From Deltaproteobacteria bacterium (GTDB taxonomy: Bacteria; Desulfobacterota; Syntrophia; Syntrophales; UBA2192): a DNA stretch of 64,000 bases. The notes beneath the pieces were generated by a model, which saw nothing but the letters and a program-made list of their open reading frames with translations, searched no databases and was not told the DNA's origin. Below are positions 5,955 through 60,043 of this stretch, one piece after another (positions within the stretch are counted from its first letter, which is position 1; every line of letters starts with the position of its first letter). The DNA lies in contig JAAYEC010000015.1 of assembly GCA_012728915.1 (NCBI GenBank), positions 23,082-87,081 of the forward strand. Direction: 5' to 3'. Made by a program: the position numbers and the translations under genes.

Positions 5955-7574
5955 ATGAGAGCGAAACCGATCCTCATCGCATCCCTGGCGACATGGCTAT
6001 GCCTTGTCGCCCTGGCCGGCTGGTCCGCGCCGCCGTCGTCGGTGGAACAGGTGCCGCGCCTGTCGAACGAAGACGTCCGGAACATGCTCGGGAAGCCCGA
6101 TGTCGTCATCGTGGACATCCGCTATATCAAGCAGTACGAAGAAAGCGACAGGCATATCCCCGGGGCGGTCTTCACCCAGCCGGACAAACTCGACGAATTC
6201 GTCAAAAACCATCCAAAGAAGGACGCCACTTACGTCCTCTACTGAGCCTGACCCCAGGAGTACACGGCCGCCCGGGTGGCGGTTGAGCTTTACAAGCGGG
6301 GATACACGAAGGCCTACACGATCGAGGGCGGATGGAACGGATGGGTCAAGGCGAACTTCCCCACGGAGCAGAAAGAGGTAACCTCGGCGAAAAACTGTGT
6401 CCTGTGCCACACGGCCATGACCCCCGGGATCGTGGCGGACTGGAAGCTGAGCAAGCACAGCCAGAAGGGGGTCGATTGCGCCGTCTGCCACGGCGACAAG
6501 CACTTCTCCCTCCAGACGGTCGCCCTGGCCGAGGTCCCGACGCCAGAACGCTGCGCCTACTGCCATGGCCCAAAGGTCAAGGAGTTCAAGGACGGCAAAC
6601 ACGCCAAGGCCTGGGCCTCCCTGAAGGCCATGCCCACCTTCCACATGCAGCCCATGGCGTTGATGGACGGCATGAAAGGGTGCGGGGGCTGCCACAAGAT
6701 CGGCACTAAAACAGACAATGAAATCAAAGAGTTGCGCAAACAGGGCGGCCAGTTCGGGGTCGCCTCCTGCGACGCCTGTCACACCCGGCACGTCTTCTCG
6801 AGGAAGGAAGCCCTGCAGCCCCAGGCCTGCCGGACCTGCCACATGGGCATCGACCACCCCCAGTGGGAGATGTATTCCTCCTCTAAGCATGGCGTGCGCT
6901 ACCTGCTGAAGCAAGCGGGCGTCCTGCCCGAGAGCGCCGCAGCGCCCACCTGCCAGAGCTGCCACATGACGGGCGGCAACCACGCCGTGCGGACGGCCTG
7001 GGGGTTCGTGGCCGTCAGGCTCCCCATGCCCGAGGACAAGAAGTGGGCGGCTGACCGGACGACGGTCATCAAGGGTCTTGGTGCTCTCGACCCGTCGGGA
7101 AAACCGACGGCGCGCCTCGGCGTTCTCAAGGACCTGGACATCTTCCGGACCACCCAGGAGGACTGGCAGAAGGAACGGGACCGGATGTTTGCCAACTGCC
7201 GTCAGTGCCATTCGTCCAACTTCGCCAAGGCCGAACTCGAGAAGGGCGACCAGATGATCCGCGAGGCGGACCGGCTGCTCGCCGAGGGGATCGAGATCGT
7301 GGCCGGCCTCTACCGGGACAAGATCATTGCCAGGCCGGCCCATTACGCCTACCCCTATCCCGATCTGCTGGCCTTCCACGACGCCCCGACGTCGATCGAG
7401 CAGAAGCTCTACCTCATGTTCCTGGAACACCGGATGCGGACCTTCCAAGGCACCTTCCACGCCAACCCCGACTACGCCCTCTGGTACGGATGGAGCAAGA
7501 TGGTCTCGGACATCACGGAGATCCGTAAGATGGCGGCCGACCTGAGGAAGGAGAAGAAAGCGGAAAGGCGATAG
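5955..7574 (+). CDS. Exported rhodanese domain fused to an HAO-like octaheme cytochrome c. Two in-frame TGA codons (6243-6245, 6249-6251) are candidate selenocysteines (U-A-U)
   Basis: The signal peptide is MRAKPILIASLATWLCLVALAGWS. The rhodanese N-half ends ...DATYVLY. Then come TGA-GCC-TGA, and the same frame continues PQEYTAARVAVELYKRGYTKAYTIEGGWNGWVKANFP. Eight CXXCH motifs follow (CVLCH, CAVCH, CAYCH, CGGCH, CDACH, CRTCH, CQSCH, CRQCH), and then an HAO-type C-terminal region (CRQCHSSNFAKAELEKGD, FHANPDYALWYGWS). Confidence 0.65.
6265..6285 (+). promoter_or_regulatory. Candidate bacterial SECIS-like hairpin serving the two UGAs of the rhodanese-cytochrome gene
   Basis: The sequence is CGGCCGCC-CGGGU-GGCGGUUG. 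The stem is 8 bp (6 Watson-Crick plus 2 G-U) and the apical loop contains GU. The loop lies ~31-33 nt after the first UGA and ~25-27 nt after the second. Confidence 0.4.
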
Positions 7575-7759
7575 AGACGGAGACCCGCTGAGAACGCCCC
7601 CCGATTCGGGCATTGCCGGCGGGCGCCGGGATATCCTGGGGGACGGGGGTGAATCCCGCCGAAACGAGGCGCTTCCCGCCGGAAGCGCCTTTCGCTTTTT
7701 CCCTCCCTTTACAAACATTCGGGGCGGCCCCATATTGGACGTGTGTAAGGGCTTTGACC

Positions 7760-8875
7760 ATGAGCAAGAGCACTGGGATCATCGCCGCGTTCCTTGCCGT
7801 TTTGTTGCTGAGCTGCCAGGGCACGGAAACGGGGGCCATCGAGGAGAAGAAACCCATGACGAAGGAAAACGCAGCCACGGGGGTCGCCACCTTTGCGGGC
7901 GGCTGTTTCTGGTGCACCGAATCGGATTTCGAAAAGGTGCCGGGGGTCGTGAGGGTCATCTCGGGGTATACGGGCGGCAAGAAAGAGAACCCCACCTACG
8001 AGGAGGTCTCCAGCGGCTGGACAGGCCACGTGGAGGCCGTCCAGGTCCACTACGACCCGGGCAGGATTACCTACGAGCAGCTCCTGGATGTCTTCTGGAG
8101 GCACATCGACCCGACGGACACAGGCGGGCAGTTCGTCGACCGGGGCTCCCAGTACCGCAGCGCGGTCTTTTACCACGACGAGGAGCAGAGGCGGCTCGCC
8201 GAGGCCTCGCGCGATGCCCTTGCCCGTTCCGGGAAGTTCACTCGGCCCGTCACGACGGAAATGCTCCCGTTGACGAAATTCTACGAGGCCGAGGACTACC
8301 ACCAGGACTACTACAAGAAGGATCCCCTGCGTTACCGTCTCTACAGGGCCGGATCGGGGCGGGATTCGTTTCTGAAAAAGACCTGGGGCGACGAGAAGCC
8401 GCAATCGCCGGCCCCCGCCTCAAAGACCTGGCCGAAGCCCGACGAGGAGACCCTCAAGCAGACGCTCACGCCGCTGCAGTACCAGGTGACGCGGAGGGGC
8501 GGGACGGAGCCGCCTTTCCGGAACGAGTACCACGACAACAAGCGCGAGGGGATCTACGTGGACATCGTCTCGGGAGAGCCCCTGTTCAGCTCGCTGGACA
8601 AATATGATTCCGGAACGGGGTGGCCGAGCTTCACGAAGCCGCTGGAGCCGGGAAATGTGGTTGAAAGGCCGGACCGGAGTCACCTCATGGTCCGCACGGA
8701 GGTGCGCAGCCGGCACGGCGACTCCCACCTCGGCCACGTCTTCCCCGACGGCCCCGCGCCGACGGGGCGGCGCTACTGCATGAACTCGGCTGCCCTGCGC
8801 TTTATCCCGAAAGAAAACCTGGAAAAGGAGGGATACGGGAACTATCTCGGACTTTTCGAGGAAAAACAGCCTTGA
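7760..8875 (+). CDS. msrAB: Bifunctional methionine sulfoxide reductase MsrA-MsrB lipoprotein
   Basis: A lipobox LLLSC is present. MsrA is identified by [11 protein letters not shown], and MsrB by [33 protein letters not shown] and [11 protein letters not shown]. Confidence 0.9.
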
Positions 8876-8938
8876 AGTGATTGGTCCAAATCGGGCATCC
8901 AATGCCCGGTGGAATGCCGTGTCGAGGAGGAAAGCACA

Positions 8939-9703
8939 ATGGGGCCGATCAGGGTCATGCCCTGCCTGGACATGAAAAACGGCCGCGTCGTCAAGGGGGT
9001 TCACTTCGTGGACATCCGCGACGCGGGCGACCCCGTGGAAAGCGCCGCCTTCTATGAGAGGGAAGGGGCCGACGAGCTGGCGATGCTGGACATCGCCGCG
9101 ACAGTCGAAAACCGCAAGACCCGCCTCGAGTGGGTCCGGCAGGTCTCGGCCGTCATCACCATCCCCCTGACTGTCGGGGGCGGGATCAACTGCCTGGAGG
9201 ACGTCGGGCTCGCCCTCGGGGCCGGCGCCTCCAGGGTCTCCATGAACAGCGCCGCCGTGAAGAACCCGGAGCTCATCCGGGAGGCGGCAAGGGCGCACGG
9301 GTCGGCCAGGGTCACCGTCGCCATCGATGCGCGACGCAACAGGGCCATGCCCTCGGGCTTCGAACTGGTCATTGCGGGCGGCACCGTCCCCGCGGGCAAG
9401 GACGCCGTCGCCTGGGCAAAACAGTGCCAGGCCCTCGGGGCGGGAGTCATCCTGCCGACGAGCATGGACGGCGACGGGACCCTGGCCGGCTACGATCTCG
9501 AGTTCACGAAGGCGATCGCCGACGCGGTCACCGTGCCCGTCGTGGCCTCCGGCGGGGCCGGCAAACTGGAGCACTTCTACGAGGCCGTCGTGAAGGGCGG
9601 GGCAAGCGTCGTCCTGGCCGCCTCGGTCTTCCACGACCGGACCTTCAGCATACGCCAGGTAAAGGAACACCTGCGGGACAGGGGTCTTCGCGTGAACCTG
9701 TAG
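8939..9703 (+). CDS. hisF: Imidazole glycerol phosphate synthase cyclase subunit
   Basis: IRVMPCLDMKNGRVVKGVHFVDIRDAGDPVE is present, followed by SMDGDGTLAGYD and VVASGGAG. Confidence 0.9.
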   Translation: MGPIRVMPCLDMKNGRVVKGVHFVDIRDAGDPVESAAFYEREGADELAMLDIAATVENRKTRLEWVRQVSAVITIPLTVGGGINCLEDVGLALGAGASRVSMNSAAVKNPELIREAARAHGSARVTVAIDARRNRAMPSGFELVIAGGTVPAGKDAVAWAKQCQALGAGVILPTSMDGDGTLAGYDLEFTKAIADAVTVPVVASGGAGKLEHFYEAVVKGGASVVLAASVFHDRTFSIRQVKEHLRDRGLRVNL

Positions 9704-9807
9704 CCGCCCGCCGCAAAGCCGGACATTCCGGCGCTCCAGCAGGGCAATCCCTTGGATTTGCGGCATCTCCGAGAAAAAACCGCTTGCCCGGCAGTCCGAT
9801 TAGCGGT

Positions 9808-11961: not shown

Positions 11962-11987
11962 CGATGCGACGTCTCCAGGCGCAGGAA

Positions 11988-12020: not shown

Positions 12021-12055
12021 CCTGTTTGCGGCCCGGGGCCCGTTGCCTGTTCGCG

Positions 12056-17205: not shown

Positions 17206-18135
17206 ATGACCAGGAAGGTATCCAGCAGGGCCCTCGGCCTCTTCGTGACCGCGGGCGCCCTCCTCGGGGTGGCCGCCGTCATCTGGGTGGGGGCGTCGAA
17301 GTATTTCGAAAAAGGGATGCGCTACGCCACCTACTTCGACGAGAGCGTGCAGGGGCTCCAGCGCGACTCCGCCGTCAAGTACCGGGGCGTGGACGTGGGC
17401 CGCGTGGAGGAGATCCGGGTGGCGCCCGACAACCGCCTCATCGAGATCATCATGAAGATCCGGCTCCGCGAGGACGTGGAGAAGAACACGGTGGCCTCGC
17501 TGAAGGTCGCCGGGATCACGGGCATCGTCTTCGTCGAACTCGACCGCCGCGACCCCGGCGACGCCGACCTGTCTCCGCGGCTGGGCTTCGCCTCCGAGTA
17601 CCCGATCATCCCGTCGCAGCCGTCCCAGATCCGCCAGATCTTCTCGGGCATCGACGAGATCGTCGAGAAGATCAAGCAGGTCGATCTCGAGGGGATCTCG
17701 AAGAGCATCACGCTCTCGGCCAAGGCCGCCGAGGAGCTTCTGTCGGGCCCCCGGGCGCAGAAGATCATGGCAAACCTGGAGTCGATCTCGTCCAATCTCG
17801 ACCGGACCGTCGCCCGTGTGGAGGGGATCACGGCGGAGGGCCGTCTCGAGGGGATCGCCGGGGAGACGCGCGCCGCCCTAGTCGAGGCCCGGGCGCTGAT
17901 TGCGGCAGCGCGGGACGAGGTCAAGGCCCTGCGGCTCGCCGAAACGGCGGAAAAGGCAAACCGGGCCGTGGATCATTTCGCGAGAACGTCGAGAACGACG
18001 GCGCGGGACGTCCAGGCCATGAGCGAGAACCTGCGGCGCGCTTCGGAAACGCTGGAAAGGCTGCTGGAGAGGGTGGAGTCGAATCCGTCGGACCTGCTCT
18101 TCAGCAGACCCCCGGCGGCGGGAAGAGGGGACTGA
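17206..18135 (+). CDS. mlaD: MlaD/MCE-domain substrate-binding protein with a long C-terminal helical region
   Basis: An N-terminal TM segment is followed by the MCE motif GLQRDSAVKYRGVDVGRVEEI. Confidence 0.85.
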   Translation: MTRKVSSRALGLFVTAGALLGVAAVIWVGASKYFEKGMRYATYFDESVQGLQRDSAVKYRGVDVGRVEEIRVAPDNRLIEIIMKIRLREDVEKNTVASLKVAGITGIVFVELDRRDPGDADLSPRLGFASEYPIIPSQPSQIRQIFSGIDEIVEKIKQVDLEGISKSITLSAKAAEELLSGPRAQKIMANLESISSNLDRTVARVEGITAEGRLEGIAGETRAALVEARALIAAARDEVKALRLAETAEKANRAVDHFARTSRTTARDVQAMSENLRRASETLERLLERVESNPSDLLFSRPPAAGRGD

Positions 18136-18180
18136 CAGGGGCAGGTGGCAAAAAGGCAGGAGGGGAAGGGGTTGAGGCGG

Positions 18181-18798
18181 ATGAGACGGATATCGGTTCT
18201 ATTGTTGGCGGTGCTCGTTGCAACGGGCTGCGGGGGCGGGAAATCGACGTACGTCGTGAAGCAGTTTCTCCCCGAGTATGAGCCGCCGTCCGTGACGGGC
18301 CGACCGCGGGTCGACGAGGCGATCCGCATAGAGCCCTTCTCCACGGCGCAGGCCTTCGCCGGAACGGCCATGGTCTACCGGCCGTCCCCTTTCGAGCTCA
18401 ATGCCTACAGCCGGGAGCGCTGGCGCGTGGCGCCGGGCGACATGGTGACGGATTTCCTGCTCCGGGACCTGCGCGCCTCCGGCGCTTTCAAGGCCGTGCT
18501 CGCCTGGGAGGACCCGGGGGAAGGCCGGTACGTCCTGGCCGGGACCGTGGCCGAATTCCTGGAGACGGACGGGGACAGGGGGGCTGCGGCGCGGCTGGCG
18601 GCCGATGTCACGCTGCTCGACACGACCCGGAAGGTGATCACGGAGCGCGTCGTCTTCCAGAAAACCTACACCGTCGAGGAGGCCATGAAGGAGAGATCGG
18701 CCCGGGGGCTTGCCGAGGCCATGAGCGGGGCGATGAGGAAATTCTCCGGGGATCTCCAGGCGGACATCCGCCGCGCCGTGACGGACGCGAAGCCGTAA
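18181..18798 (+). CDS. ABC-type transport auxiliary lipoprotein (DUF330/YmbA/PqiC-like)
   Basis: A lipobox LVATGC is present, and the gene sits directly after mlaD as is typical for this family. Confidence 0.7.
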   Translation: MRRISVLLLAVLVATGCGGGKSTYVVKQFLPEYEPPSVTGRPRVDEAIRIEPFSTAQAFAGTAMVYRPSPFELNAYSRERWRVAPGDMVTDFLLRDLRASGAFKAVLAWEDPGEGRYVLAGTVAEFLETDGDRGAAARLAADVTLLDTTRKVITERVVFQKTYTVEEAMKERSARGLAEAMSGAMRKFSGDLQADIRRAVTDAKP

Positions 18799-22856: not shown

Positions 22857-23321
22857 GTGAAAGAGAGTCTCATCGAGGAAGCGGTAAAACGGCATCAGAA
22901 CGGGTTCAGCTGCGCCCAGGCGATTCTGGCGACCTACGGGCCGGAGCTGGGCCTGGAGAGGGAAACGGCTCTCAAGGTGGCCGGCGGGTTCGGCAGCGGA
23001 ATGGGCCGCATGGCCGGGACCTGCGGGGCCGTGACAGGGGCCTTTATGGTCATCGGCCTTCTCCACGGCATGACGAAAGCGGACGACCAGAAACAGAAGG
23101 AACTCTCCTACGAGGTGGTGCGCCGCTTCGCGGAGAGGTTCAGGCAGCGCCACGGGTCACTGGAGTGCCGGGAGCTGATGGGGGTCGACGTGAGCAAGCC
23201 CGAGGGTCTTGCCGAGGCGAGACGAAGAAACATCTTCCGGACCGCCTGCCCCGGGTACGTGCGGGACGCGGCGGAGATCCTCGAGGAGTTGATGGGCGGG
23301 TCCTTGGAGGACAGCAGGTAA
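22857..23321 (+). CDS. C_GCAxxG_C_C family protein
   Basis: NGFSCAQAIL, GTCGAVTGAFMVIG and ACPGYVRDA are present. The start is GTG with an AGGGGA RBS. Confidence 0.8.
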   Translation: MKESLIEEAVKRHQNGFSCAQAILATYGPELGLERETALKVAGGFGSGMGRMAGTCGAVTGAFMVIGLLHGMTKADDQKQKELSYEVVRRFAERFRQRHGSLECRELMGVDVSKPEGLAEARRRNIFRTACPGYVRDAAEILEELMGGSLEDSR

Positions 23322-24438: not shown

Positions 24439-24972
24439 TTACTTGCGGGCCTTCTTTGCCCCGGACTTTGCCTTGCGTTTCGAGGCAACTGTTTCCAGTT
24501 CGCTCTCGAGGCGGATCACCTTCCTGAGCTCGGCGAACAGGATCTTGTTCTTGGGCCGATCGGCGATGTCGTGGATGTCGATGTAGCGGATGATCCCGTA
24601 CTTGTCGAGCACGAAGATCGCCCGCTCCGAGAATCCTTCCTTGCGCTTCACGCCGTACTTCTTCGCGACGGCCGCCTGCGGAGAAAAATCGCTCAGCAGC
24701 GGGAAGGAGATCCCGCCCAGACTTTCCGCCCATGCCTTCAGGCAGGGGATATGATCGACGCTGATGCCCAGGACCTGGGCATTGAGCCCCGCGAACTTGG
24801 CCGTCTCGGCCTCGTACGAGGGCAGCTGGTTCGTTCAGACCGGCGTCCAGGCAAGGGGGAAGAACGCGATGACAACGGGACCCCGGCCGAGGCATTTTTT
24901 GAGAGTCACTCTTCTGTCGAGGTGACTCGGCAGGGTGAAGTTGGGGGCTTTCTGCCCGACCTTCAGCTTCAT
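24439..24972 (-). CDS. Peroxiredoxin (AhpC/TSA family) with an in-frame TGA (24835-24837, complement) at the peroxidatic Cys position; candidate selenoprotein
   Basis: MKLKVGQKAPNFTLP...VVIAFFPLAWTPV-[TGA]-TNQLPSYEAETAKFAGLNAQVLGISVDH...ERAIFVLDKYGIIRY. The two track ORFs 24835..25176 and 24439..24651 are in the same frame. Confidence 0.7.
24799..24823 (-). promoter_or_regulatory. Hairpin-capable sequence downstream of the peroxiredoxin UGA (candidate SECIS)
   Basis: On the mRNA strand two overlapping hairpins are possible. GCCCU-CGUACG-AGGC begins 12 nt after the UGA, and GGCCG-AGA-CGGCC begins 24 nt after it. Confidence 0.3.
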
Positions 24973-29465: not shown

Positions 29466-29777
29466 ATGAGGATTGACGGAACAACCTGGACGGGAAGCCC
29501 GGACCGGATATTCGCGCAGCAGGGCGGCGCCACGGCGGGGGCCCTGGTCCCTGCGGGATCCGGCGAAAGCCGCCGCGGACAGTCCCCGCCGCAGCCGAAT
29601 GTGCCGCCCCATGGGTTTGCCCTCGTCCACGATCCGTCGCACGGGGTTGTCGTCATCGACCTGGTTCACGCCGCCCTTCGCGCCGCCGAGTCGCCGACCT
29701 ACCGTATTTCACGGCACGGCATCTTCGAGATCGACGCGAAACCGTACAAGGGAGGCATCGTCGACCTGAGGGTCTGA
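29466..29777 (+). CDS. Hypothetical protein (103 aa); coding status uncertain
   Basis: Third-codon GC is about 80%, like real genes here, but the RBS is weak and no recognisable family was found. Confidence 0.3.
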   Translation: MRIDGTTWTGSPDRIFAQQGGATAGALVPAGSGESRRGQSPPQPNVPPHGFALVHDPSHGVVVIDLVHAALRAAESPTYRISRHGIFEIDAKPYKGGIVDLRV

Positions 29778-30638: not shown

Positions 30639-32213
30639 TCACTTGGCCGGTGCTGCCGGCGGCGGCTGAAGGAGAATCTGGTGCTCCTCCTCGCGTGACT
30701 CTCCCGCGCTTGTCACATAAATGGCCGGCTGGCCGACGACGGGACAGTGCTTCTCGCAGGCCCCGCAGCCGATACAGGCCGCGAGGTCCACGTGAGGCTG
30801 CTGCAGGCGGATCGGCCGGCCATTGCGGTCCTTCACCGCGACCTGCTCGAGCCAGATCGCTTTTTTCGGCGTCGGGCAGATCTCTTCGCAGACGATGCAC
30901 GGGGTGGCGTGGGCGAAGGGCAGGCATCGGCCCCTGTCGATGGCGGCGTGTCCCAGCCTCTCCTGCTGCTTCCGCTCCAGGGGCAGCTTCCGGATGGCCC
31001 CCGTGGGGCAGACCTGGCCGCAGAGGGTGCAGCCGAACTCGCAGTACCCGATCCGCGGCACGAGCACCGGCGTCCAGAGCCCCTCCAGGCCGGCTTCCAG
31101 CAGCGTGGGCTGGAGCCCTCCCGTGATGCATACTTTCATGCATTCGCCGCATCGCACGCAGCTCTGGAGAAACGTCGTTTCCGCAAGCGCGCCGGGCGGC
31201 CGGATGAGCTTCGCGTCCGACATCCGCGGCCGGGCAAGCGGCGAGATGCGCAACAGCGGAACGGCGAAGGCCCCCGCGAAAATCGAGGCCATCACCTTTC
31301 TTCGCCCCAGGTCGAGGCCCCCCCGGGGGCGCCCCTTCATCAGGCCGAAGCTCACGGCGTTCTTCGGGCACGCATCGTCGCAGTTGCTGCACAGGAGGCA
31401 CTCCGAGGCCCGCCACCTGTCCTTGCCGGCGGGCACGGCGTCGGCCTGACACACCCCGACGCAGGCCCCGCAGGAGTCGCACTCCTCGCTCACGCTCCGC
31501 CGCAGCACGGAGCGGCGCGAAAGAAGCCCCAGCAACGCCCCCAGCGGGCAGAGGAACCGGCACCAGAAGCGCCGCTGCACGAGGTTTAGCGCCAGCAGGC
31601 CGAGGAAGGTGAGGCCGATGAAAACCCCCTGTGCAGACCAGGGCTGCCGGAACGGGAGAACCGTCTTCTGGAGCAGGCCGTAGACGGCCTCCGAGGCGGG
31701 GGTGACGAGTGGAAGGTTGAGCCGGCAGATCGCGTCGAAGAGGGACGTGGCCGCAATGCTCGCGGCCGGGTAGAGGGCCAGCGAGAGGGACCGGATGGTG
31801 AGCGAGATGGGGTCCAGGATACCGGCCAGCTGCACGCCGAAGAGCGACATGCCGATAAGGCCCAGGAGGACGTAATACTTCACCCTGAACCCCCCGGCGC
31901 CGGGGGGATTGGGTCGCGTCGTCCGGAGGCCCCCGGCAAGATTGTTGAGAGTGCCCAGGGGGCAGACCCAGCCGCAGAAGATCCGCCCCAGCAGGGCGGT
32001 GAGGCCCGCGAGGACGAGTGCCGGCCAGAAGAGCCCCTCGGCGCGACGGGAGGCAAGGGAGGTCGTCAGGGCAATCAGGGGATCGACGTCGAGAAAAAGC
32101 CTGACGGGCCACCCCAGCTCGTCGGTCCCCTTCGACTCCGTCTGAATGAAGAGAAAGAGGAACAGGGCCAGGAACAGTCCCTGGACGATCCGTCGCGTGC
32201 GCGCCAGTGTCAC
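30639..32213 (-). CDS. Membrane-bound polyferredoxin (NapH/MauN-like 4Fe-4S binding protein)
   Basis: TM segments carry repeated CGWVCPLGT and RFWCRFLCPLGA motifs. Several C-terminal CxxCxxCxxxCP clusters follow. GTG 32213 lies 2 nt after the upstream DUF362 stop codon. Confidence 0.8.
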   Translation of the reverse strand: MTLARTRRIVQGLFLALFLFLFIQTESKGTDELGWPVRLFLDVDPLIALTTSLASRRAEGLFWPALVLAGLTALLGRIFCGWVCPLGTLNNLAGGLRTTRPNPPGAGGFRVKYYVLLGLIGMSLFGVQLAGILDPISLTIRSLSLALYPAASIAATSLFDAICRLNLPLVTPASEAVYGLLQKTVLPFRQPWSAQGVFIGLTFLGLLALNLVQRRFWCRFLCPLGALLGLLSRRSVLRRSVSEECDSCGACVGVCQADAVPAGKDRWRASECLLCSNCDDACPKNAVSFGLMKGRPRGGLDLGRRKVMASIFAGAFAVPLLRISPLARPRMSDAKLIRPPGALAETTFLQSCVRCGECMKVCITGGLQPTLLEAGLEGLWTPVLVPRIGYCEFGCTLCGQVCPTGAIRKLPLERKQQERLGHAAIDRGRCLPFAHATPCIVCEEICPTPKKAIWLEQVAVKDRNGRPIRLQQPHVDLAACIGCGACEKHCPVVGQPAIYVTSAGESREEEHQILLQPPPAAPAK

Positions 32214-32214
32214 C

Positions 32215-33116
32215 TCAGACACCGATCTTCTTGATCTGCAGTTTCGAGAGGTCCATGACCCCGAGGCCCGCATTCGCGGCGAGTCTCACGCTGCCGATGT
32301 CGCTGCCCTTCATCCCGAACAGCGTCGCCCCGAAGGAATCGACAGCCACCTGGTCCGTGCCCGCGACAACGGTGTCGAGACGCTTCACGTCGCTGAGATC
32401 GCCCCCGGTGGGGCCGTTGGCCGTGAGGATGCGAACGGCGTCCAGCACGGTGAGCGCCGGCCTGATGACCCGGACGAGATCGACAAGGCTCTCATCGAGG
32501 CGCTGATGGACGCGGAACCGCGCGCCCCCCATGATGCCCATCCAGTTCTTCATGCCCAGGGTAAGCCCCGACAGGCCGTGGGTCTTGGCGACGGGGACGT
32601 TGATGACCTTGTCCGCCTCGAAGATCTCGCCGTAGAGGGGCCAGGACTTCAGGGCCTTTCCATCGAGTCTGACGTCCCGGTACTTGCGGCCGTCCATGTA
32701 GACCATCTCGGCCCCCGCCGTGGCTGCCGCATCGGCGATCCCGCTCTGCCTGTAGCAGCGCCTCGCGTCGTTCACGGGATTGTCGAGGATCCGGACCTTT
32801 TTCGCCCCCGCCTCGTAGCACAGCTTCGCCAGGGCGCCGACGACATCGGGATTGGTGGTGGCGGCGTACTGCGGGGCGCGGTCCCACCCGATGTTGGGCT
32901 TCAGGACGACGACGTCGCCCGCGGCAACGAAACGTTTCATCCCCCCAGGGCATCCAGGGCCGCACGCACAATTTGCGGGGTCGAGGTCCCCCGGACCACG
33001 ACCAGATCGGGCCCCCGGGCCGCGTGCGCCATGCGGCCCAGCGCGGCAAGGCCGCAGGGCAGCGCCAGCCCCGCCGAGGAAAGGGCCGTCCACTTCAGGA
33101 AATCGCGTCTCTTCAT
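32215..33116 (-). CDS. Tat-exported DUF362 domain protein; the reading frame is broken by a 1-nt shift at a G6 run (32941-32946)
   Basis: The Tat signal is MKRRDFLKWTALSSAGLALPCGLAALGRMAHA. The N-terminal frame ends ...AALDALGG-TGA at 32937-32939. The family continues in the next frame as MKRFVAAGDVVVLKPNIGW...VPVAKTHGLSGLTLGMKNWMG. Confidence 0.7.
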
Positions 33117-33286
33117 CCGGCACCTCAACGGATTGCTGCCTGGGTAAATACCACAACCGGCAGGCCGGGACAAACCGAAAGGGAAGCCGCGTTCTGTCCG
33201 GGCCGGACACCTGCGGGGGAATTTTTATGTGGATTTTGGCCTCCCGAGCCATTACTATACTATCACACTGATAAGGAGGTCCGTCC

Positions 33287-33595
33287 ATGAAATCAAGATC
33301 CCTCGGCCTCGTGGCGATCCTGGCGGCGCTTGCCGTCCTGATCGTCGCCTCGCCCGTCCTGGCAAAGGAACGGGTCGTCCAGCTTTCCCTGCCGGACTGC
33401 TCCTGACCCTTCACCCGCGAGAGGGTCAGTTGGACCGTCGAAAACATCGCAAAGGCGTCCGTCGTGGATATCAACGAGTACACCCACATAGCGGTTGTAA
33501 AGTTCGACGACGAGAAAACGACCGTCGAAAAGATCGTCGATTCCCTCGAGAAGGCGGGGTTCCCCCTGTCGGGACCGCCCAAATTCCTGAAGTAG
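33287..33595 (+). CDS. Exported HMA-fold (heavy-metal-associated-like) protein with in-frame TGA (33404-33406) in a C-S-U motif; candidate selenoprotein, absent from the ORF track
   Basis: An AAGGAGG RBS is present. The signal peptide is MKSRSLGLVAILAALAVLIVASPVLA. The mature part reads KERVVQLSLPDCS-[TGA]-PFTRERVSWTVENIAKASVVDINEYTHIAVVKFDDEKTTVEKIVDSLEKAGFPL. This gives a beta-alpha-beta-beta-alpha-beta pattern with the motif at the CxxC position. Confidence 0.6.
33403..33436 (+). promoter_or_regulatory. Hairpins at and after the UGA of the HMA-like gene (candidate SECIS)
   Basis: CUGACCCU-11 nt-AGGGUCAG is a perfect 8-bp stem that includes the UGA. The alternative GGUC-AGUUG-GACC places its loop 24-28 nt after the UGA. 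Confidence 0.35.
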
Positions 33596-33609
33596 TGGAC
33601 CGGTTAGCC

Positions 33610-33646
33610 GGGGCGGCGGCCCCGAGAGGGTCACCGCCCCTTTTTT
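33610..33646 (+). terminator. Intrinsic terminator after the HMA-like gene
   Basis: GGGGCGG-17 nt-CCGCCCC, followed by TTTTTT. Confidence 0.7.
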
Positions 33647-33713
33647 CGCGCAAGCAGTCGCCCTTCGGCCTGCCTTTTCTGCCCTGCCCGCTGGACCCCG
33701 GAGGCGGAATTCC

Positions 33714-33956
33714 ATGGAAAGTTCCACGAGAGAAAGATACCTCCGCACCCTGATGCGATACCAGGAACAACACGGCCGGGAGAAGGCCTCGGCCATCCAG
33801 GAAAGATTCTGGAAAGACCGGGAGCGGGTCGTCTCGGAAAGCGCGGAGGAAATCGACTGGTTTCCTTCCTGGAAAAAGAACCAGGTCCTCGAGTCCCTGC
33901 TCGAGAAAACTTACAGGGATCTCATCCGTGAAATGGAGCTCGAGGGCCTGCCCTGA
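33714..33956 (+). CDS. Hypothetical protein (80 aa)
   Basis: The ORF begins with ATG and has plausible codon usage. No family was recognised. Confidence 0.45.
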   Translation: MESSTRERYLRTLMRYQEQHGREKASAIQERFWKDRERVVSESAEEIDWFPSWKKNQVLESLLEKTYRDLIREMELEGLP

Positions 33957-34070
33957 ACGCCCCCGTTGCGTAAAGGCGCGATGGCGATCCGGATGACGAT
34001 CCCCTTCAACGCTCGACGGCCGACGGGGGGCCGGCCGTTCACCGGCCCTCCGGGGCCGCGGGAGGTCATC

Positions 34071-35696
34071 ATGGAGTTCAACGTGCTCATCGGCGGGGAG
34101 GCCGGCCAGGGGATGTTCTCCGTGGAGCTGCAGCTCTCGGAGATGCTCTCCCGGCTGGGGTATCCCTTTTTCGCGACAAAGAACTACATGTCGCGGATCC
34201 GCGGCGGCCACAATTTCCACATGATCCGGATCGCCGAGAAGCCTGTCCATGCCCTCAGCGGGAAACCCTGGGACCTGATCGTCGCCATGGACCGGGCCGA
34301 GACGGAGCGCCGGCACAAGCCCTTCCTCCGGGAGGGAGGCCCCTTCATCGGGCCGGAACGCGTCGGACAGATCGAAAGGGAAGCGAAGGGGGAACTGCAG
34401 GACGTAACGGCAACGAGCGTCATCCTGACCGGCCTGATCCTCGCCTTCATCGGGGCGGATGACGCCGCGGCGCAGTCGGCGGCGCCCGACGGGACGGCGC
34501 GGAAGGCGCTGGCGATGGGATGGGACTTCGCCGCCCGCTGGGGGCTGGCGGCCCGAAGGTCCTTCGCCCCGCAGATCGGCGAGCACTGCAAGCTCGACGG
34601 GAACCAGGCCCTCGCCCTCGGGGCTCTACTGGGAGGATGCCAGTTCGTGGCCGGCTACCCCATGACGCCCGCCACTTCGATCCTGCACTACTTCTCCTCC
34701 GTCGCGGAAGAGCTGCCCGTTCATTTCGAACAGGCCGAGGACGAGATCGCCGCCCTGAACATGGCCCTGGGGGCCTCCTATGCGGGGCTCCGGTCCATGG
34801 TGGCCACCTCGGGCGGGGGCTTTGCCCTCATGACCGAAGCCGTCTCGCTGGCCGGGATGACGGAGACACCGGTCGTCATCATCGTCGCCCAGCGGCCCGG
34901 ACCGGCCACGGGACTTCCTACGAGGACCGAGCAGGGCGACCTGAACTTCGTCCTGCACGCCGGGCACGGCGAATTCCCCCGGGTCCTCTTCGCACCGGGA
35001 TCCATTGAAGAGGCCATATCACTGGCGCGCAGGGCCTTCGATGTTGCCGACCGCTGGCAGATCCCCGTGTTCATCCTGACGGACCAGTACCTGGCCGACT
35101 CCCTGCAGATCATGGAAGGACGCGTACCCACCAAGATGCTCAAACGGGACTTGCCCGTTGCCGGGGCGGACTACCGGCGCTACGAGATCACGGACTCCGG
35201 GGTCTCGCCCCTGACCTATCCCGGGCTCTCCGAGGCCCGCGTCGAAGTGGATTCCGACGAGCACACGGAAGACGGCAAGATCACGGAAGATCGCGGGATG
35301 AGGGTCCGGATGGTCGACAAGAGACTCCGGAAATTCGAGGGTCTCCGGAAGGAAGCGGTCATGCCGGCCCGTTTCGGAGACCGGAGGGCACCCACCGTCC
35401 TCGTCTCGTGGGGATCGAACCGACTGATCGTGAACGAGGCCGTCGAGGTGCTTCGGGCCGAAGGGATTTCCGTGTCATCGGCCCACTTCGGCCAGGTCTA
35501 CCCGCTCACCCCGCAGATGGCGCGTGGTCTTGCGCGCAAGCGGCTGATCTGCATCGAAAACAATGCCACGGGGCAGTTCGAACAGTTGCTCCGCCACGAA
35601 TTGGGCCTGAAGGCGACCCATCGGATCCTGAAATACGACGGCGAATGCTTCACCGTGGGAGAACTGGTGGAACGGGTCAAGGGAATTCTGGGTTGA
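34071..35696 (+). CDS. korA: 2-oxoacid:ferredoxin oxidoreductase, fused gamma-alpha subunit
   Basis: The gamma domain shows IGGEAGQGMFSVELQLSEML...RIRGGHNFHMIRI. The alpha domain shows GNQALALGALLGGCQFVAGYPMTPATSI. A GGGAGG RBS is present. Confidence 0.85.
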   Translation: MEFNVLIGGEAGQGMFSVELQLSEMLSRLGYPFFATKNYMSRIRGGHNFHMIRIAEKPVHALSGKPWDLIVAMDRAETERRHKPFLREGGPFIGPERVGQIEREAKGELQDVTATSVILTGLILAFIGADDAAAQSAAPDGTARKALAMGWDFAARWGLAARRSFAPQIGEHCKLDGNQALALGALLGGCQFVAGYPMTPATSILHYFSSVAEELPVHFEQAEDEIAALNMALGASYAGLRSMVATSGGGFALMTEAVSLAGMTETPVVIIVAQRPGPATGLPTRTEQGDLNFVLHAGHGEFPRVLFAPGSIEEAISLARRAFDVADRWQIPVFILTDQYLADSLQIMEGRVPTKMLKRDLPVAGADYRRYEITDSGVSPLTYPGLSEARVEVDSDEHTEDGKITEDRGMRVRMVDKRLRKFEGLRKEAVMPARFGDRRAPTVLVSWGSNRLIVNEAVEVLRAEGISVSSAHFGQVYPLTPQMARGLARKRLICIENNATGQFEQLLRHELGLKATHRILKYDGECFTVGELVERVKGILG

Positions 35697-47433: not shown

Positions 47434-47910
47434 ATGAAACTCAAGAAGGCGATGGACAAGGAATCTGTCATCATCGAGTGCCTGCGCTGCGGGACCCGGA
47501 ACCGCCTGCCCCGGGGGCGCATCCAGGACAGGCCGCGCTGCGGGAAGTGCCATGCCCCCCTCGACGTCCGCAGCTTTGCGGTGCGGCCCCTGGAGACGAG
47601 CGACGCGAAATTCGCCGTCGACGTCCTCGCCGCCGCGGAGCCTGCCCTTGTCCTTTTCTACTCGCCGTCCTGCCCGTACTGCCGGATGCTCTCGCCGGTC
47701 ATCGACGAGCTTGCCGTCAAATTCGAGGGGGCGGCCCTCGTGGCCCGGATCGACGTCAACACAAACCCCACCGTCGCCCGTCAGTACGGCATCCAGGGAG
47801 TGCCGACGCTGCTGCTGTTCCGCGAGGGGAAGCTGATGAAGCGGATGGCGGGGGTACTATCGGGCGACGAGATCGAACGGAGCCTGAAAGGAATCATTAA
47901 ACTATCGTGA
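47434..47910 (+). CDS. Thioredoxin-2-like protein (N-terminal zinc-finger + Trx fold) with an atypical SCPYC active site
   Basis: The zinc finger is CLRCGTRNRL...RCGKCHAPL. The Trx fold shows LVLFYSPSCPYCRML...GVPTLLLF. Confidence 0.85.
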   Translation: MKLKKAMDKESVIIECLRCGTRNRLPRGRIQDRPRCGKCHAPLDVRSFAVRPLETSDAKFAVDVLAAAEPALVLFYSPSCPYCRMLSPVIDELAVKFEGAALVARIDVNTNPTVARQYGIQGVPTLLLFREGKLMKRMAGVLSGDEIERSLKGIIKLS

Positions 47911-56444: not shown

Positions 56445-56452
56445 CGCCGGCC

Positions 56453-56827
56453 ATGGCGCAGAAGATCCGAATCACCGCCGGTTCCGCGGTTGTCCTGGCC
56501 GAGCTGTCCGATACGGAGTGCGCCAGGGCGATTGCCTCGACGCTCCCGATCGAGACGGTCCCGAACGAGTGGGGCGACGAGTTCTACTTCACCGTCCCCG
56601 TGAAGTTGCCCCTTGATGCCACGGCCACGAGGAAGGTAAAAGTCGGCGACATCGGCTACTGGCCGCCGGGCAGTGCGCTGGCCATCTTCTTCGGGCGCAC
56701 GCCCATGAGCACGGGGCCGGACCCGGTGCCGGCAAGCGAAGTGAATCTTGTCGGCCGGATCACCTCCGATGCGTTAATGCTGAGAAAGGCCAAGGGGGCC
56801 TCGAGCATCCGTATCGAAAAGGAGTAA
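56453..56827 (+). CDS. Cyclophilin-like fold protein (TM1367-like)
   Basis: KIRITAGSAVVLAELSDTECARAI...WGDEFYF...GDIGYWPPGSALAIFFG is present. The alternative GTG start at 56441 overlaps the upstream stop codon. Confidence 0.65.
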   Translation: MAQKIRITAGSAVVLAELSDTECARAIASTLPIETVPNEWGDEFYFTVPVKLPLDATATRKVKVGDIGYWPPGSALAIFFGRTPMSTGPDPVPASEVNLVGRITSDALMLRKAKGASSIRIEKE

Positions 56828-56831
56828 AACC

Positions 56832-57248
56832 ATGAGAGAGCTCGTACGGCTCGGCCTGATCCTCCTTGCACTCGTCCTCGTCGGCTGCGGCGCCACGAAG
56901 CGCCCTGTCCTGTACCCGAACCATCACCTGAAGGCGGTCGGCACGGCCCAGGGGGAACGGGACATCGACGACTGCATGCAGATGGCCGAGACCTACGTCA
57001 AGAAGAACCAGGAATCCAAGGTGGCCGAGGGGGCCGTGAAGGGCGGCGCTGTCGGAGCGGCTACGGGGGCGGCGGTGGGCGCCGTGACGGGCAACTTCGG
57101 CAGAGGCCTTGCAGCGGGAGCGGCAGGCGGCGCGGCAGGCGGGGCCACGCATGGACTCTTCAAGGCGGCCGAGCCGAGCCCGGTGTACAAGAACTTCGTC
57201 AACCGGTGCCTCAAGGACAAGGGTTATGAGCCGATGGGGTGGCAGTAG
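56832..57248 (+). CDS. Glycine-zipper lipoprotein
   Basis: A lipobox LVLVGC is present, with a Gly/Ala zipper (GAVKGGAVGAATGAAVGAVTGNFGRGLAAGAAGGAAGGA). Confidence 0.75.
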   Translation: MRELVRLGLILLALVLVGCGATKRPVLYPNHHLKAVGTAQGERDIDDCMQMAETYVKKNQESKVAEGAVKGGAVGAATGAAVGAVTGNFGRGLAAGAAGGAAGGATHGLFKAAEPSPVYKNFVNRCLKDKGYEPMGWQ

Positions 57249-57291
57249 GGTAGGGGGGGCCGCAGACCCTGGAAATATCGCCGATTGCCGA

Positions 57292-57957
57292 TCATAGATA
57301 AGGGAAAATCTCTTCGATCACCCTGTCGAAGTTCTTCTTCACGTTCGATCTCCCCGTTACCATACCCATGTGACCGGGAAGCAGGTACTCCACATCAAGC
57401 CTGGAGAGACTCAGGATGCTCTCCCGGAGGAGCTTGCTGTCGCCGCCGGGGAAATCGGATCGGCCCACGTTCATCTGGAAGATCACGTCGCCGGAGAAGA
57501 GGACCTTCTTCGCCGGCCAGTACAGGCCGATGGAGCCCGGCGAGTGGCCCGGCACGATGGAAACCTGGAATGTCTCCGCGCCCAGCTGCAGCTCCCCCTC
57601 CTTCAGCGGAAGGTTCACGTCCACGTCCGGCGCCTTGAGGCCGAAGAGCCCGTAGAGATAGGCGCCGGGGCCCTTCATGAAATCCATCTCGATCTCCGAA
57701 AGGGCGATCTTCACCCGCGAGCCGTCGAAGAGCGCCGAGGCCTCATAGTGGTCGGGATGCGAGTGGGTGTTGACGACGATCTTGATGTCCTCCTTCCCGA
57801 TCCCGTCCCTGGACATCCGCCGGAGCAGATCCGGCAGGTGAGCGCTCAGGCCCGGGTCCACGAGGGCCCCAACGGCGCCGCCGATGAAGTAGCTGTTGCA
57901 GTTGTTCTCGAAGTAGTTCGTCCACTCGTAGACGTAGAGGTTCTCGGCAAGCTTCAC
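57292..57957 (-). CDS. MBL-fold metallo-hydrolase
   Basis: The HSHPDHY motif is present, with PGHSPGS and LLPGH. Confidence 0.88.
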   Translation of the reverse strand: MKLAENLYVYEWTNYFENNCNSYFIGGAVGALVDPGLSAHLPDLLRRMSRDGIGKEDIKIVVNTHSHPDHYEASALFDGSRVKIALSEIEMDFMKGPGAYLYGLFGLKAPDVDVNLPLKEGELQLGAETFQVSIVPGHSPGSIGLYWPAKKVLFSGDVIFQMNVGRSDFPGGDSKLLRESILSLSRLDVEYLLPGHMGMVTGRSNVKKNFDRVIEEIFPYL

Positions 57958-58103
57958 GGCATCTCCTTTTCGCGGGCGGTGTCATGCGGTCGTCCAGTCT
58001 ATAGCCGATAGGGGCGTCGAAGACAAGGTCATTCTCCACTTTCCCGTTGCGTCCGGCGGAGTTCTGTGATTAGCAGGGCGGAAGAAGGGGGATCCCTGCG
58101 TCG

Positions 58104-58994
58104 ATGGAGCGACAGACAAGGGCCTATCTCTATGCCGTGGCAACCGTTGGGCTCTGGTCGACCGTGGCTTCGGCCTTCAAGCTGACCCTCGACCACATGG
58201 GTTTTCTCGAGATGCTTCTCGGGGCATCCGTCGTGTCGCTTGCCGCCCTTTTTGTCATCGTGCTGGCCCAGGGCAAGCTTGCCGCCATCGCGCATTCCTC
58301 AGCGAAAGACCTCGCTTGCTCGGCCGCCCTGGGGTTTCTCAACCCTTTCCTCTACTACGTGATCCTCTTCAAGGCCTACTCCGTGCTGCCGGCGCAGGAG
58401 GCCCAGCCCCTGAACTGGACCTGGCCGATCATGCTGGTGCTGCTCTCCATCGCGATCCTCAAACAGCCGATCCGTTGGGCGAGCGTGCTGGCCGTCGCGA
58501 TCAGCTTCTCGGGCGTCCTGGTCATCTCCACCCGCGGCGACGTGCTGGCCTTCCGCTTCACGAACCTGCCCGGGGCGCTCCTGGCGCTCGGCAGCTCCAT
58601 CGTCTGGGCCCTCTTCTGGATCTACAACGTGAAGGACTATCGCGACGAGATCGTGAAGCTCTTCCTCAATTTCGTCTTCGGGTCGATCTTCACCCTCGCA
58701 GCGGTTCTTTTCTTCGGAGAGCTTCGGGTCCCCCCTTCGGCGGGCCTCCTGGGGGTTCTCTGGATCGGCCTCTTCGAGATGGGAATCACCTTCGTCAGCT
58801 GGCTCAAGGCGCTTCAGCTCTCGCGAACGACGGCACAGGTGAGCAACCTCGTCTACGCCGCGCCCTTCCTGTCCCTGTTTCTCATCCACTTCATCGTCGG
58901 CGAAGAGATCCTGCCCTCCACGGTGCTCGGGCTTGTCCTCATCGTGGCGGGGGTCATCGTGCAGCAGTACGCGAATCGCTCAAAAAAGGCATAA
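58104..58994 (+). CDS. EamA/DMT-family transporter
   Basis: The protein has ten predicted TM segments in a duplicated EamA-like pattern. Confidence 0.8.
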   Translation: MERQTRAYLYAVATVGLWSTVASAFKLTLDHMGFLEMLLGASVVSLAALFVIVLAQGKLAAIAHSSAKDLACSAALGFLNPFLYYVILFKAYSVLPAQEAQPLNWTWPIMLVLLSIAILKQPIRWASVLAVAISFSGVLVISTRGDVLAFRFTNLPGALLALGSSIVWALFWIYNVKDYRDEIVKLFLNFVFGSIFTLAAVLFFGELRVPPSAGLLGVLWIGLFEMGITFVSWLKALQLSRTTAQVSNLVYAAPFLSLFLIHFIVGEEILPSTVLGLVLIVAGVIVQQYANRSKKA

Positions 58995-59232
58995 CAGACG
59001 GCGGGGACATTCGAAGACATCCGGAACGTCCTTCCGGAAAGCGAGGCCGCCATGAGGGGGTTTCCAGACGGGGGATTCTATGGCGCCTGAACGGCTCAGG
59101 CCGGGAGGGTTCTGCCGGCACGCATCACCGTCGCGTTCGTGAAATCCCGGCGGCAAGCGGGAACTGCGGGCGGGGCGAGGGAGTCGCGGTTGCAGTGAGT
59201 GGTTCGAGCTATTTCAGGGGACGCAAACGGCA

Positions 59233-59268
59233 GGCTCCCCGCCGTGCAGGTCGGGGAGCCCTTTTTCT
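59233..59268 (+). terminator. Intrinsic terminator-like hairpin, 240 nt after the EamA gene
   Basis: GGCTCCCCG-10 nt-CGGGGAGCC, followed by CTTTTTCT. Confidence 0.55.
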
Positions 59269-59285
59269 CGTGGTGGCCGTAATGC

Positions 59286-59561
59286 TCAGCCGATCATGGT
59301 CTTGATCGCATCGGCAACGGGAGAGGTGAAGAGGGCTATCATCACCGCGTAGAGCGCGAAGGAGCCGGCGGCCTCGCTCAGGTAGAGCTTCTCATACTTC
59401 TGCTTGAGCGAGAGGATCGTAAGCCCGCCGATCACGATGGCGCCGAGGTGGAAGTAGGGGAAGTTGTCCGCACCCGCGGCGGCGTATTCAGCAAAGCTGA
59501 AGGTGGCGGTGATGAGAACGACTAGGACGGTCAGGGCCAGCATCGAAAGCGACTTTTTCAT
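59286..59561 (-). CDS. Small hypothetical membrane protein (91 aa)
   Basis: A GGAGGAAA RBS is present. The protein has a signal/TM segment plus two further TM segments. Confidence 0.6.
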   Translation of the reverse strand: MKKSLSMLALTVLVVLITATFSFAEYAAAGADNFPYFHLGAIVIGGLTILSLKQKYEKLYLSEAAGSFALYAVMIALFTSPVADAIKTMIG

Positions 59562-59836
59562 TTTCTATTTCCTCCTTGCGACTGGTTTATTTCCGATCTT
59601 TGCCTTTCTCTATTGAAACGATCGTGCCAAGTCGCAACGGCGAAACAGAAAATTTGTAACTGCTGGTCATGATTGAAAAAACAGCGGTTCAGTTCAACCG
59701 CCCTTTGCGCGGGGGGGCCAGGAAAGGGGCTGCCCGTTGAATGGAACGTTCAACCGCGTTGAACGGATATTTCAAACGAAGATCTTCCCTGTCCGCAATG
59801 ATCCCCGTTCGGCCCACGGCCGAAGGGTCAGACGTC

Positions 59837-60043
59837 TCAGGTCCCGCCGTAGCCCACGGTCACTTTCCCGCCTTCGACGATGACGGGGACAAGCCTTTTG
59901 CCCCCGGAGAGCTTCAGCATCTCGGCAAGCCGCCCTGTATCCTTTTTCACATCCACGTAATCCGCCCCGGCGCCATAGGCCGACCTGGCCCTGTCCGTGT
60001 AAGGTCAGCCCGCCTTGCCGTAGATGACCGCCTTGTCCGCCAT
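59837..60043 (-). CDS. Glutaredoxin-like protein with in-frame TGA (60005-60007, complement) at the first active-site Cys (U-P-Y-T); candidate selenoprotein, absent from the ORF track
   Basis: An AGGAGG RBS lies 9 nt upstream, and the ATG is 28 nt after the rtcB stop codon. The protein is MADKAVIYGKAG-[TGA]-PYTDRARSAYGAGADYVDVKKDTGRLAEMLKLSGGKRLVPVIVEGGKVTVGYGGT. This matches the glutaredoxin pattern VxIYxKxxCPYCxxA...vP.i.i.G..igG. Confidence 0.6.
59978..59990 (-). promoter_or_regulatory. Candidate SECIS-like hairpin after the glutaredoxin-like UGA
   Basis: On the mRNA strand the sequence is GGCC-AGGUC-GGCC. The loop contains GGUC and lies ~21-25 nt after the UGA. Confidence 0.35.

Follow-up and report, generated by a model that had tools for sequence, protein, structure and literature searches.

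Four probable selenoprotein genes with six in-frame UGA codons in a 64-kb stretch of an uncultured Syntrophales genome

Bacteria decode selenocysteine (Sec, U) at UGA codons with the help of a hairpin just 3' of the codon, which binds SelB together with Sec-tRNA(Sec) and delivers the latter at the A site. Several described selenoproteins resemble the genes considered here. MccSep (ExtKL, NF040886) of Geobacter sulfurreducens is a pentahaem Sec-containing polysulfide reductase that also reduces selenite (PMC13510729). The glutaredoxin-like (Grx-like) UXX-star family 1 is catalogued as ‘UxxT, 2 Sec’ (PMC13188914), the rhodanese family NF041203 (rhodanese_LYCAU) as CxU with one Sec, and other catalogued families contain two Sec sites close together (UxxU, UxxxxU). 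Here we describe a stretch of 64,000 nucleotides with 63.7% G+C (positions 23,082 to 87,081 of contig JAAYEC010000015.1, assembly GCA_012728915.1), called the window below. It contains four genes with in-frame TGA codons, encoding a rhodanese fused to an octahaem cytochrome, a MerP/HMA-like protein, a Grx-like protein and a peroxiredoxin (Prx). Judged from sequence comparisons, these are very probably selenoprotein genes of a Sec-decoding, uncultured member of the Syntrophaceae/Syntrophales that is common in wastewater and digester metagenomes.

The TGA sites were recovered by a frame-aware scan for coding potential on both sides, combined with motif searches; in query proteins for NCBIfam and Pfam profile searches U was replaced by C. 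They fall between 5955 and 60043, which are the ATG of the rhodanese gene and the ATG of the Grx-like gene, respectively. The original prediction counted five Sec codons, and all five are present and in frame with recognizable domains, but a further TGA at 59837-59839, at the C-terminal end of the Grx-like gene, raises the number of recoded codons to six. In each of the four genes both flanks of the in-frame UGA are conserved and homologues carry Cys or Sec at the same column, the pairs being YUAUP/YCAUP, WTPVU/WTPVC, C-x-U/C-x-C and GUPYT/GCPYT. At the same columns, TGA is found again in species of 30–86% identity, which excludes chance. The core of the original prediction, that UGA stands at redox or ligand Cys positions of selenoprotein genes, is thus well supported, by Sec/Cys pairs at every site, by conserved downstream hairpins and by two of the four genes passing curated models. 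Two of the genes fall into catalogued families (Prx with TPVU, and UXX-star family 1), while the UxU rhodanese-cytochrome fusion and the MerP-like CxU protein lie beyond the catalogue.

The rhodanese-cytochrome gene (5955..7574, + strand) encodes 539 residues, comprising a signal peptide, a rhodanese domain with a U-A-U loop and, in the same frame, an HAO-like octahaem cytochrome c. The loop (...KKDATYVLY-U-A-U-PQEYTAARVA...) contains Sec codon 1 at 6243-6245 (residue 97) and Sec codon 2 at 6249-6251 (residue 99). Residues 17-140 score 129.2 bits against NF041203 (cut-off 115) and share with that family the L-Y-x-A-U-P loop and the invariant Sec at its second position, so that Sec codon 2 is the counterpart of the U in LYCAU, the motif after which the model is named. 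The window copy departs from the catalogue entry in two ways. Its loop has two TGAs (UxU, as in 7 of 10 relatives) instead of CxU with one Sec, and it is not the single-domain protein that the 126-position model implies but the N-terminal module of a 539-aa cytochrome, joined to about 400 residues of octahaem sequence. Pfam recognizes both parts of the fusion, Rhodanese and Multi-haem_cyto (PF13447, 84 bits; PF13435). Eight CxxCH motifs were counted in the cytochrome part, the same number as in the HAO-family structures (PDB 6h5l, 4n4j, 6hif, 1fgj), and its haem core matches HAO, HOX and hydrazine dehydrogenase (HDH), with E=2e-29 for 6h5l. It is accordingly an octahaem cytochrome of the HAO family, but far from the hydrazine dehydrogenase equivalog (84.8 bits vs 900).

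For the cytochrome part, a protein search yielded more than 6,000 homologues, the majority being stand-alone multiheme c-type cytochromes of about 415 aa with their own signal peptide, 65–73% identical to the window sequence; relative to these, the fusion has a signal peptide plus Sec-rhodanese domain in place of the signal peptide. A subset starts within the C-terminal half of the rhodanese domain and therefore represents truncated fusions. The same in-frame fusion is found full-length, at 56–86% identity, in at least 10 other species (among 80 loci from species-representative genomes, the source genome's own copy not being one of them), the metagenome-assembled genomes (MAGs) concerned being assigned to Syntrophaceae, Syntrophales, Desulfatiglandales and Syntrophobacteria. 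Seven of the ten listed relatives have Y-U-A-U-P and three have Y-C-A-U-P. At the first codon the DNA reads TGA in L013-L019 and TGC (Cys) at the same column in L020-L022, while the second codon is TGA in 11 of 11 sequences, so that Sec and Cys alternate at the first loop position and the second is TGA without exception. For the intervening Ala, all four synonymous codons are found (GCC, GCG, GCA, GCT). Judged from its translation, the 432-aa open reading frame (ORF) downstream of the TGAs has no signal peptide of its own, in contrast to the stand-alone homologues, and the periplasm, where haem is attached, would therefore be reachable for the cytochrome half only by read-through of both TGAs.

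A hairpin resembling a selenocysteine insertion sequence (SECIS) follows at 6268..6282 (+), 16 nt past the second TGA, with a 5-bp core and a loop of 5 nt (CGGGU in the window, where the stem is lengthened to 8 bp and spans 6265-6285). The consensus is GCC-(C/A)GGNN-GGC, with GG in the loop of 11 of 11 sequences. Some 98% of cells are paired, against 31–78% in slid controls, and two pairs show compensatory exchanges (GC<->CG and CG<->UA). Lying 22 nt past the first UGA and 16 nt past the second, this one hairpin presumably serves both, which would make the gene a natural example of Sec being inserted at two codons spaced by six nucleotides with, apparently, a single SECIS hairpin.

The MerP/HMA-like gene (33287..33595, +) encodes an exported 102-aa protein that has a signal peptide and, as its metal loop, C-S-U (...VVQLSLPDCS-U-PFTRERV...), the Sec codon being at 33404-33406 (residue 40). 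The alignment places U-P-F-T over C-P-I/F-T of MerP, so that Sec takes the place of the second metal-binding Cys of the MerP CxxC, the loop being one residue shorter. The TGA is thus at a ligand Cys of an HMA metal loop, as had been proposed, but the spacing is C-x-U. The protein is clearly homologous to MerP structures (1osd, E=3e-7) and stands just below the gathering score of HMA PF00403 (24.1 bits vs 24.8). Against the MerP model TIGR02052 (cut-off 92.55) it scores 48.6 bits and the other clades 37–57 bits, and the clades also remain well below NF041115 (17.8–21.1 bits vs 95) and NF045683 (20.5–38.1 bits vs 375); no clade reaches any NCBIfam cut-off, and no HMA/PF00403 C-x-U entry was found in the 2026 catalogue of prokaryotic selenoproteins. 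A signal peptide, an HMA/ferredoxin-like domain and a soft-ligand loop at the same place are shared with MerP, with the UxxU metal-binding family (NF041115) and with the MerT/CopZ fusion (NF045683). In contrast to the GMTCxxC of MerP, the loop is D-C-S-U-P (C-x-U, or C-x-C in the Cys forms), and no mer operon is present.

Only two full-length database proteins match the MerP-like protein. Both have W at the Sec column where the DNA reads TGA, indicating that their contigs were translated with code 4. In a metagenome scan the TGA was kept in 17 further loci and in a 98% strain variant, making up three clades, while Cys was present in 5 (among the loci read). Clade A has C-[SE]-U-P-F-T-R (65–98% identity), clade B C-G-U-P (~40%) and clade C C-[ILM]-U-G-G (~32%); the Cys forms have C-L-C-Q or C-R-C-A, and farther out stand true MerP proteins with CxxC. 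In the 98%-identical strain (L098) the TGA is kept, and the adjacent Cys codon has changed from TGC to TGT. The downstream hairpin (33421..33439, +) begins 14 nt past the UGA and has a 7-bp stem and a 5-nt loop, AGUUG. It is found in the same register in all three clades, with AGUUG, AGUUC or AGUUA as the loop in clades A and B and AGGUU or AGGAU in clade C; 93.7% of cells are paired versus 23–49% in slid controls, and across 18 sequences compensatory changes are seen in 4 of the 7 pairs, with a single G-G mismatch in the copy of the window.

In clades A and B the MerP-like gene has conserved neighbours, a divergent pair encoding a DUF362 protein exported by twin-arginine translocation (TAT) and a polyferredoxin on one side, and 2-oxoacid:ferredoxin oxidoreductase on the other. 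Such a neighbourhood favours a periplasmic redox or carrier role over mercury resistance, and by analogy only the protein might bind a soft metal or chalcogen in the periplasm. The family would add to the known selenoproteins an exported Sec-containing metal- or chalcogen-binding module that has no curated model. In the window (30639-35696) and in L099, L101, L104, L107, L109 and L111, the membrane polyferredoxin (Fer4_5) and TAT-exported DUF362 genes share a strand, and the C-x-U gene, a conserved ~80-aa ORF and the 2-oxoacid:ferredoxin oxidoreductase genes diverge from them, an order kept between clades A and B at ~40% identity. In one sub-lineage only (L093:59-968, L094:710-1575, L105, L106), the MerP-like gene instead lies ~60 nt downstream of an exported peroxiredoxin with an in-frame TGA (YTP[TV]-U), the two forming a two-selenoprotein gene pair. 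The DUF362 gene of the window (32215-33116, − strand) is split into a 59-aa ORF with the TAT signal and a 241-aa ORF overlapping by ATGA (junction 32937-32940). In L099, L101 and L104 it is a single ORF of 300 aa, and the difference is 1 nt in a G run (GGGGGGG in L101 and L104, GGGGGG in the window, GGGTGGG in L099). Both other same-species assemblies that cover the site (L007, L008) also have the split, which might be explained by pseudogene formation, a slippery site or phase variation.

As to what the two uncatalogued proteins might do, PDB alignments are ambiguous as to which position of the U-A-U loop equals the catalytic Cys of rhodaneses. By analogy only, the rhodanese selenol or selenols may attack S-S or Se-containing substrates; one Sec might handle a persulfide- or selenide-type intermediate and the other resolve it, with electrons from the fused haem chain. 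MccSep is a functional precedent for such haem-fed Sec chalcogen chemistry, being likewise a periplasmic multihaem cytochrome c that pairs haem electron transfer with a catalytic Sec. The relation is one of resemblance and not of membership, as MccSep belongs to another family, with 5 haems, one Sec (GUPTP) within the cytochrome fold and no rhodanese domain. Our wider proposal is tentative, and we rate it as rather less than probable: that the U-A-U pair could form a diselenide or selenenylsulfide and the fusion be a haem-fed reductase of polysulfide, thiosulfate or Se compounds, functionally analogous to MccSep; that, jointly with it, the exported MerP-like C-x-U family, syntenic with TAT-exported DUF362/polyferredoxin, makes up two types outside the lists consulted; and that the selenoproteome of these Syntrophales is possibly exceptionally large. 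As a possible new enzyme of sulfur or selenium metabolism that combines haem with selenium, the fusion is open to testing, and it comes to light shortly after the characterization of the first such enzyme, MccSep.

The Grx-like gene (59828..60043, −) encodes 71 aa, with UPYT near the N-terminus and U-D-V-stop at the C-terminus. Its first Sec codon (60005-60007, residue 13) lies in the context MADKAVIYGKAG-U-PYTDRAR..., or GKAG-U-PYT, where Cys forms have GCPYT. The second (59837-59839, residue 69) is followed by just two codons and the true stop (...GYGGT-TGA-GAC-GTC-TGA, the last TGA at 59828-59830). A CPYC motif with TGA at a redox Cys had been proposed; the motif is in fact UPYT, with Thr and no Cys in fourth place. 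With 107.9 bits against a cut-off of 72 for NF041114 (UXX-star family 1), UxxT in the form of UPYT and a C-terminal U-x-x-stop (U-D-V-TGA), the gene is a plain member of the family, from which it shows no material difference; as the family is listed with UxxT and 2 Sec, this is an ordinary case. Homologues have GCPYT, or GWPYT...GSWGV in code-4 translations. The DNA of L097 carries TGA at each of the two sites, and W stands at both in four database translations. Without exception the tail consists of U, one residue, Val and stop (UDV, UGV, UNV). As a suggestion of our own, the two Sec residues might form a redox pair.

Hairpins are found at both Grx-like sites, which is suggestive. The first (59977..59991, −; GGCC-AGGUC-GGCC) lies 13 nt past the UGA and recurs in L097, where one pair has changed on both sides from G-C to A-U (two sequences compared). 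The second (59808..59824, −; UUCGGCC-GUG-GGCCGAA) lies in the 3' untranslated region, 12 nt past the UGA, and L097 has a hairpin at the same position with the stem core CGGCC-GGU-GGCCG; there it is followed by a U run and may also act as a terminator. The gene starts 29 nt past the stop of RtcB, which overlaps archease (59828-61923, −), and archease, RtcB and the Grx-like gene probably form one transcript. A conserved synteny of the Grx-like gene with RtcB was considered and set aside, since L097, the sole relative checked, has a different upstream neighbour.

The Prx gene (24439..24972, −) encodes a 177-aa protein without signal peptide, in which Sec (24835-24837, residue 46; ...FFPLAWTPV-U-TNQLPSY...) is at the peroxidatic position. 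The protein is an AhpC/TSA peroxiredoxin (PF00578, 118 bits) whose TPVU aligns with TPVC, and it shares with known Sec-peroxiredoxins (PF00578, TxxU; e.g. PrxU) both this fold and Sec at the peroxidatic Cys of TPxC. It is not PrxU itself (NF040737, 52.3 bits vs 270), and no NCBIfam Prx model was passed. Homologues were sought with the 131 residues after the Sec as query, and many of the closest database matches are fragments that begin a few residues past the U. Relatives have either TGA or Cys at the column: the TGA is kept in the DNA of L095 (FTPVU) and L096 (WTPIU), and full-length Cys homologues have WTPVC or FTPVC (P0163, P0179, P0215), P0163 having WTPVC at 61% identity. By analogy, the selenol would be the peroxidatic nucleophile of a cytoplasmic protein. 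A SECIS-like stem-loop extends over 24788..24822 (−), with its apical hairpin (24799-24811, GGCC-GAGAC-GGCC) 23 nt past the UGA and a single-sequence z-score of -2.1; L095 has a hairpin in the same place with a different sequence (GGAA/UUCC), three sequences being compared. Some close relatives (P0163; L096:1338-1944) have an extra C-terminal Grx/Trx-like domain with CPDC (VMYCTxWCPDC), absent from the window copy. L096 also has a frameshift within the Prx, probably an assembly error.

Each UGA would be decoded via a short G+C-rich hairpin about 12–24 nt downstream, and all six sites have a suitably placed one with GG or GU in the loop. The rhodanese and MerP-like hairpins are supported by covariation, while the support at the Prx and Grx-like genes is thinner (2–3 sequences). 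Several observations weigh against decoding as Sec. SECIS support comes from three sequences for Prx and from two per site for the Grx-like gene, and an Rfam scan of the whole window gave no match. Single-sequence folding energies are no better than those of shuffled sequences for 4 of 5 hairpins, the z-scores downstream of the TGAs ranging from -2.1 to +1.1, although such values are uninformative alone in sequence of 64% G+C. The minimum-energy fold of the window MerP-like sequence prefers an alternative hairpin that includes the UGA itself; this was set aside for the downstream one, which covaries across three clades. ARAGORN found neither a tRNA-Sec nor any other tRNA in the window, and no SelA, SelB or SelD Pfam domain is present among its called genes, as the original prediction had stated for the sel machinery. 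The selA, selB, selC and selD genes are expected elsewhere in the genome, as for the order generally, which has known Sec users among its members.

Other explanations of the TGAs fare considerably worse. If the codons were ordinary stops, the genes would be pseudogenes, split or in decay, or else independent short genes (a 96-aa rhodanese and a 432-aa cytochrome, for example); public gene calls take them that way, and one gene of the window, DUF362, really is frameshifted. This reading is very improbable given that both flanks are in frame and conserved down to 32% identity, that some relatives have Cys codons at the TGA column, that the codon for Ala between the two rhodanese TGAs shows synonymous changes only, that the cytochrome half has no signal peptide and that the fragments are without start codons or essential domain halves. 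Sequencing or assembly errors, for instance TGC or TGT misread, might be suspected in a metagenome-assembled source with one homopolymer-length difference in the window. However, the four gene regions are 100% identical in 2–4 independent assemblies each (NCBI MAGs, ENA and JGI metagenomes), derived from different samples and pipelines, so the TGAs are not assembly errors. The original prediction had named assembly artefacts as a possible refutation; the TGAs persist both in independent assemblies and in other species, which effectively refutes this explanation and leaves it a negligible probability. No greater weight attaches to TGA being a sense codon genome-wide (code 4 or 25). Database translations with W at the TGA sites (P0121, P0122, P0125, P0127) would agree with it, but these calls come from short contigs of 0.5–2 kb, the in-frame TGAs occur only at Cys-equivalent positions, and TGA is the commonest stop in the window, ending 36 of the 57 called genes with mappable ends, from which it follows that the organism uses the standard code. 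A less extreme, though still unlikely, alternative concerns the second Grx-like TGA (59837-59839) alone, which as a real stop would leave five Sec codons in the window. The NCBI-derived coding sequence of 68 aa ends there, and the hairpin behind it could be a terminator, with a U run after it in L097; but no U run follows the hairpin of the window, the tail is always exactly two codons, with Val last, before a second stop, and the curated family is defined by U-x-x-stop and listed with 2 Sec.

It had also been suggested that the density of selenoprotein genes is unusual. Published numbers of such genes are 19 for the cultured Syntrophus aciditrophicus, 31–39 for Syntrophobacter fumaroxidans and 43 for the current record holder. 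Set against genome size, these counts amount to roughly one selenoprotein gene per 100–170 kb (about 130–170 kb in S. fumaroxidans and S. aciditrophicus), and the four genes in 64 kb are about ten times the average of Sec-rich relatives. Measured against published averages the density is thus high, but the evidence goes no further than a chance accumulation within a lineage rich in Sec; to specialists in this lineage, clustered selenoprotein genes in a Desulfobacterota genome would come as no surprise. A functional island of co-regulated or co-inherited genes might be imagined from this excess over S. fumaroxidans and S. aciditrophicus, from the fact that all four products are thiol/selenol redox or ligand proteins, and from the MsrAB, Trx and Grx paralogues nearby. 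We consider it quite unlikely, as the genes, separated by 9–27 kb, are spread over both strands amid unrelated housekeeping genes (ilv, his, mla, gap, nrd, POR, RtcB), and the relatives' copies are in other contexts. With a mean of ~0.4–0.8 per window, some window with at least four is not rare among many screened, so the concentration is not very surprising and gives no evidence of an island.

In public records the four genes are broken up. The rhodanese-cytochrome gene is split into a 96-aa ‘rhodanese-like’ and a 432-aa ‘multiheme c-type cytochrome’ protein in every record inspected, the Prx gene is represented by a 45-aa N-terminal fragment, and the MerP-like gene by fragments of 39 and 43 aa. 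The Grx-like gene is called with 39 aa by JGI and with 68 aa in NCBI-derived records, where it passes the first TGA and ends at the second. The expectation that standard annotation would miscall or miss all four genes is thus correct as to miscalling, but the NCBI call of 68 aa makes ‘miss’ too strong. In JGI/ENA calls on short contigs (P0121, P0122, P0125, P0127, P0129, P0137), TGA is rendered as Trp (code 4); such a W at a Cys/Sec column is convenient for spotting hidden selenoproteins, and it also introduces incorrect sequences into protein databases. Exact-sequence look-ups place the window proteins on many wastewater-type metagenome contigs and in MAGs labelled Syntrophaceae, Syntrophales or Syntrophobacterales, where the original prediction had spoken of Desulfobacterota. 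An organism abundant in wastewater and digester metagenomes thus has four redox proteins missing from its annotated proteome.

The Sec genes sit among Cys-form paralogues, and the mixed Cys/Sec usage seen by the original prediction is real, as are the motifs of the three genes it named. These are an exported glutaredoxin with CPWC and a DUF4124 domain (63311..63784, −), a thioredoxin with SCPYC and an N-terminal zinc ribbon (47434..47910, +), and an MsrA-MsrB fusion with GCFWC (7760..8875, +) directly downstream of the rhodanese-cytochrome gene. Other TGAs with coding-like flanks were judged to be ordinary stops or to separate same-frame neighbours: + 29775, − 49144, + 59088, + 33954, + 8873, + 18133, + 19462, + 20549 and − 14659. 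At 29775-29777, a 103-aa ORF (29466-29777, +) ends with ...GGIVDLRV-TGA-CCC-TGC (U-P-C); this TGA is treated as an ordinary stop, as the downstream peptide looks non-coding although stop-free for more than 50 codons. Three gene pairs lie in the same frame, separated by a TGA and a short spacer, and mimic read-through candidates in a naive scan: MsrAB/hisF (7760-8875 and 8909-9703), mlaD and a lipoprotein gene (17206-18135 and 18145-18798), and a small ORF and POR (33714-33956 and 34071-35696). Sec forms are known in the family of the C_GCAxxG_C_C gene (~22.9–23.3 kb), but the window has an all-Cys copy. Beside this gene, at ~22.8–23.0 kb of the window, two assemblies of the same species (L005 and L006, at 15.6–16.3 kb in their coordinates) differ by an indel of ~155 bp; the gene is called with 106 aa in one of them and with 154 aa in the other, and the window follows the L006 form.

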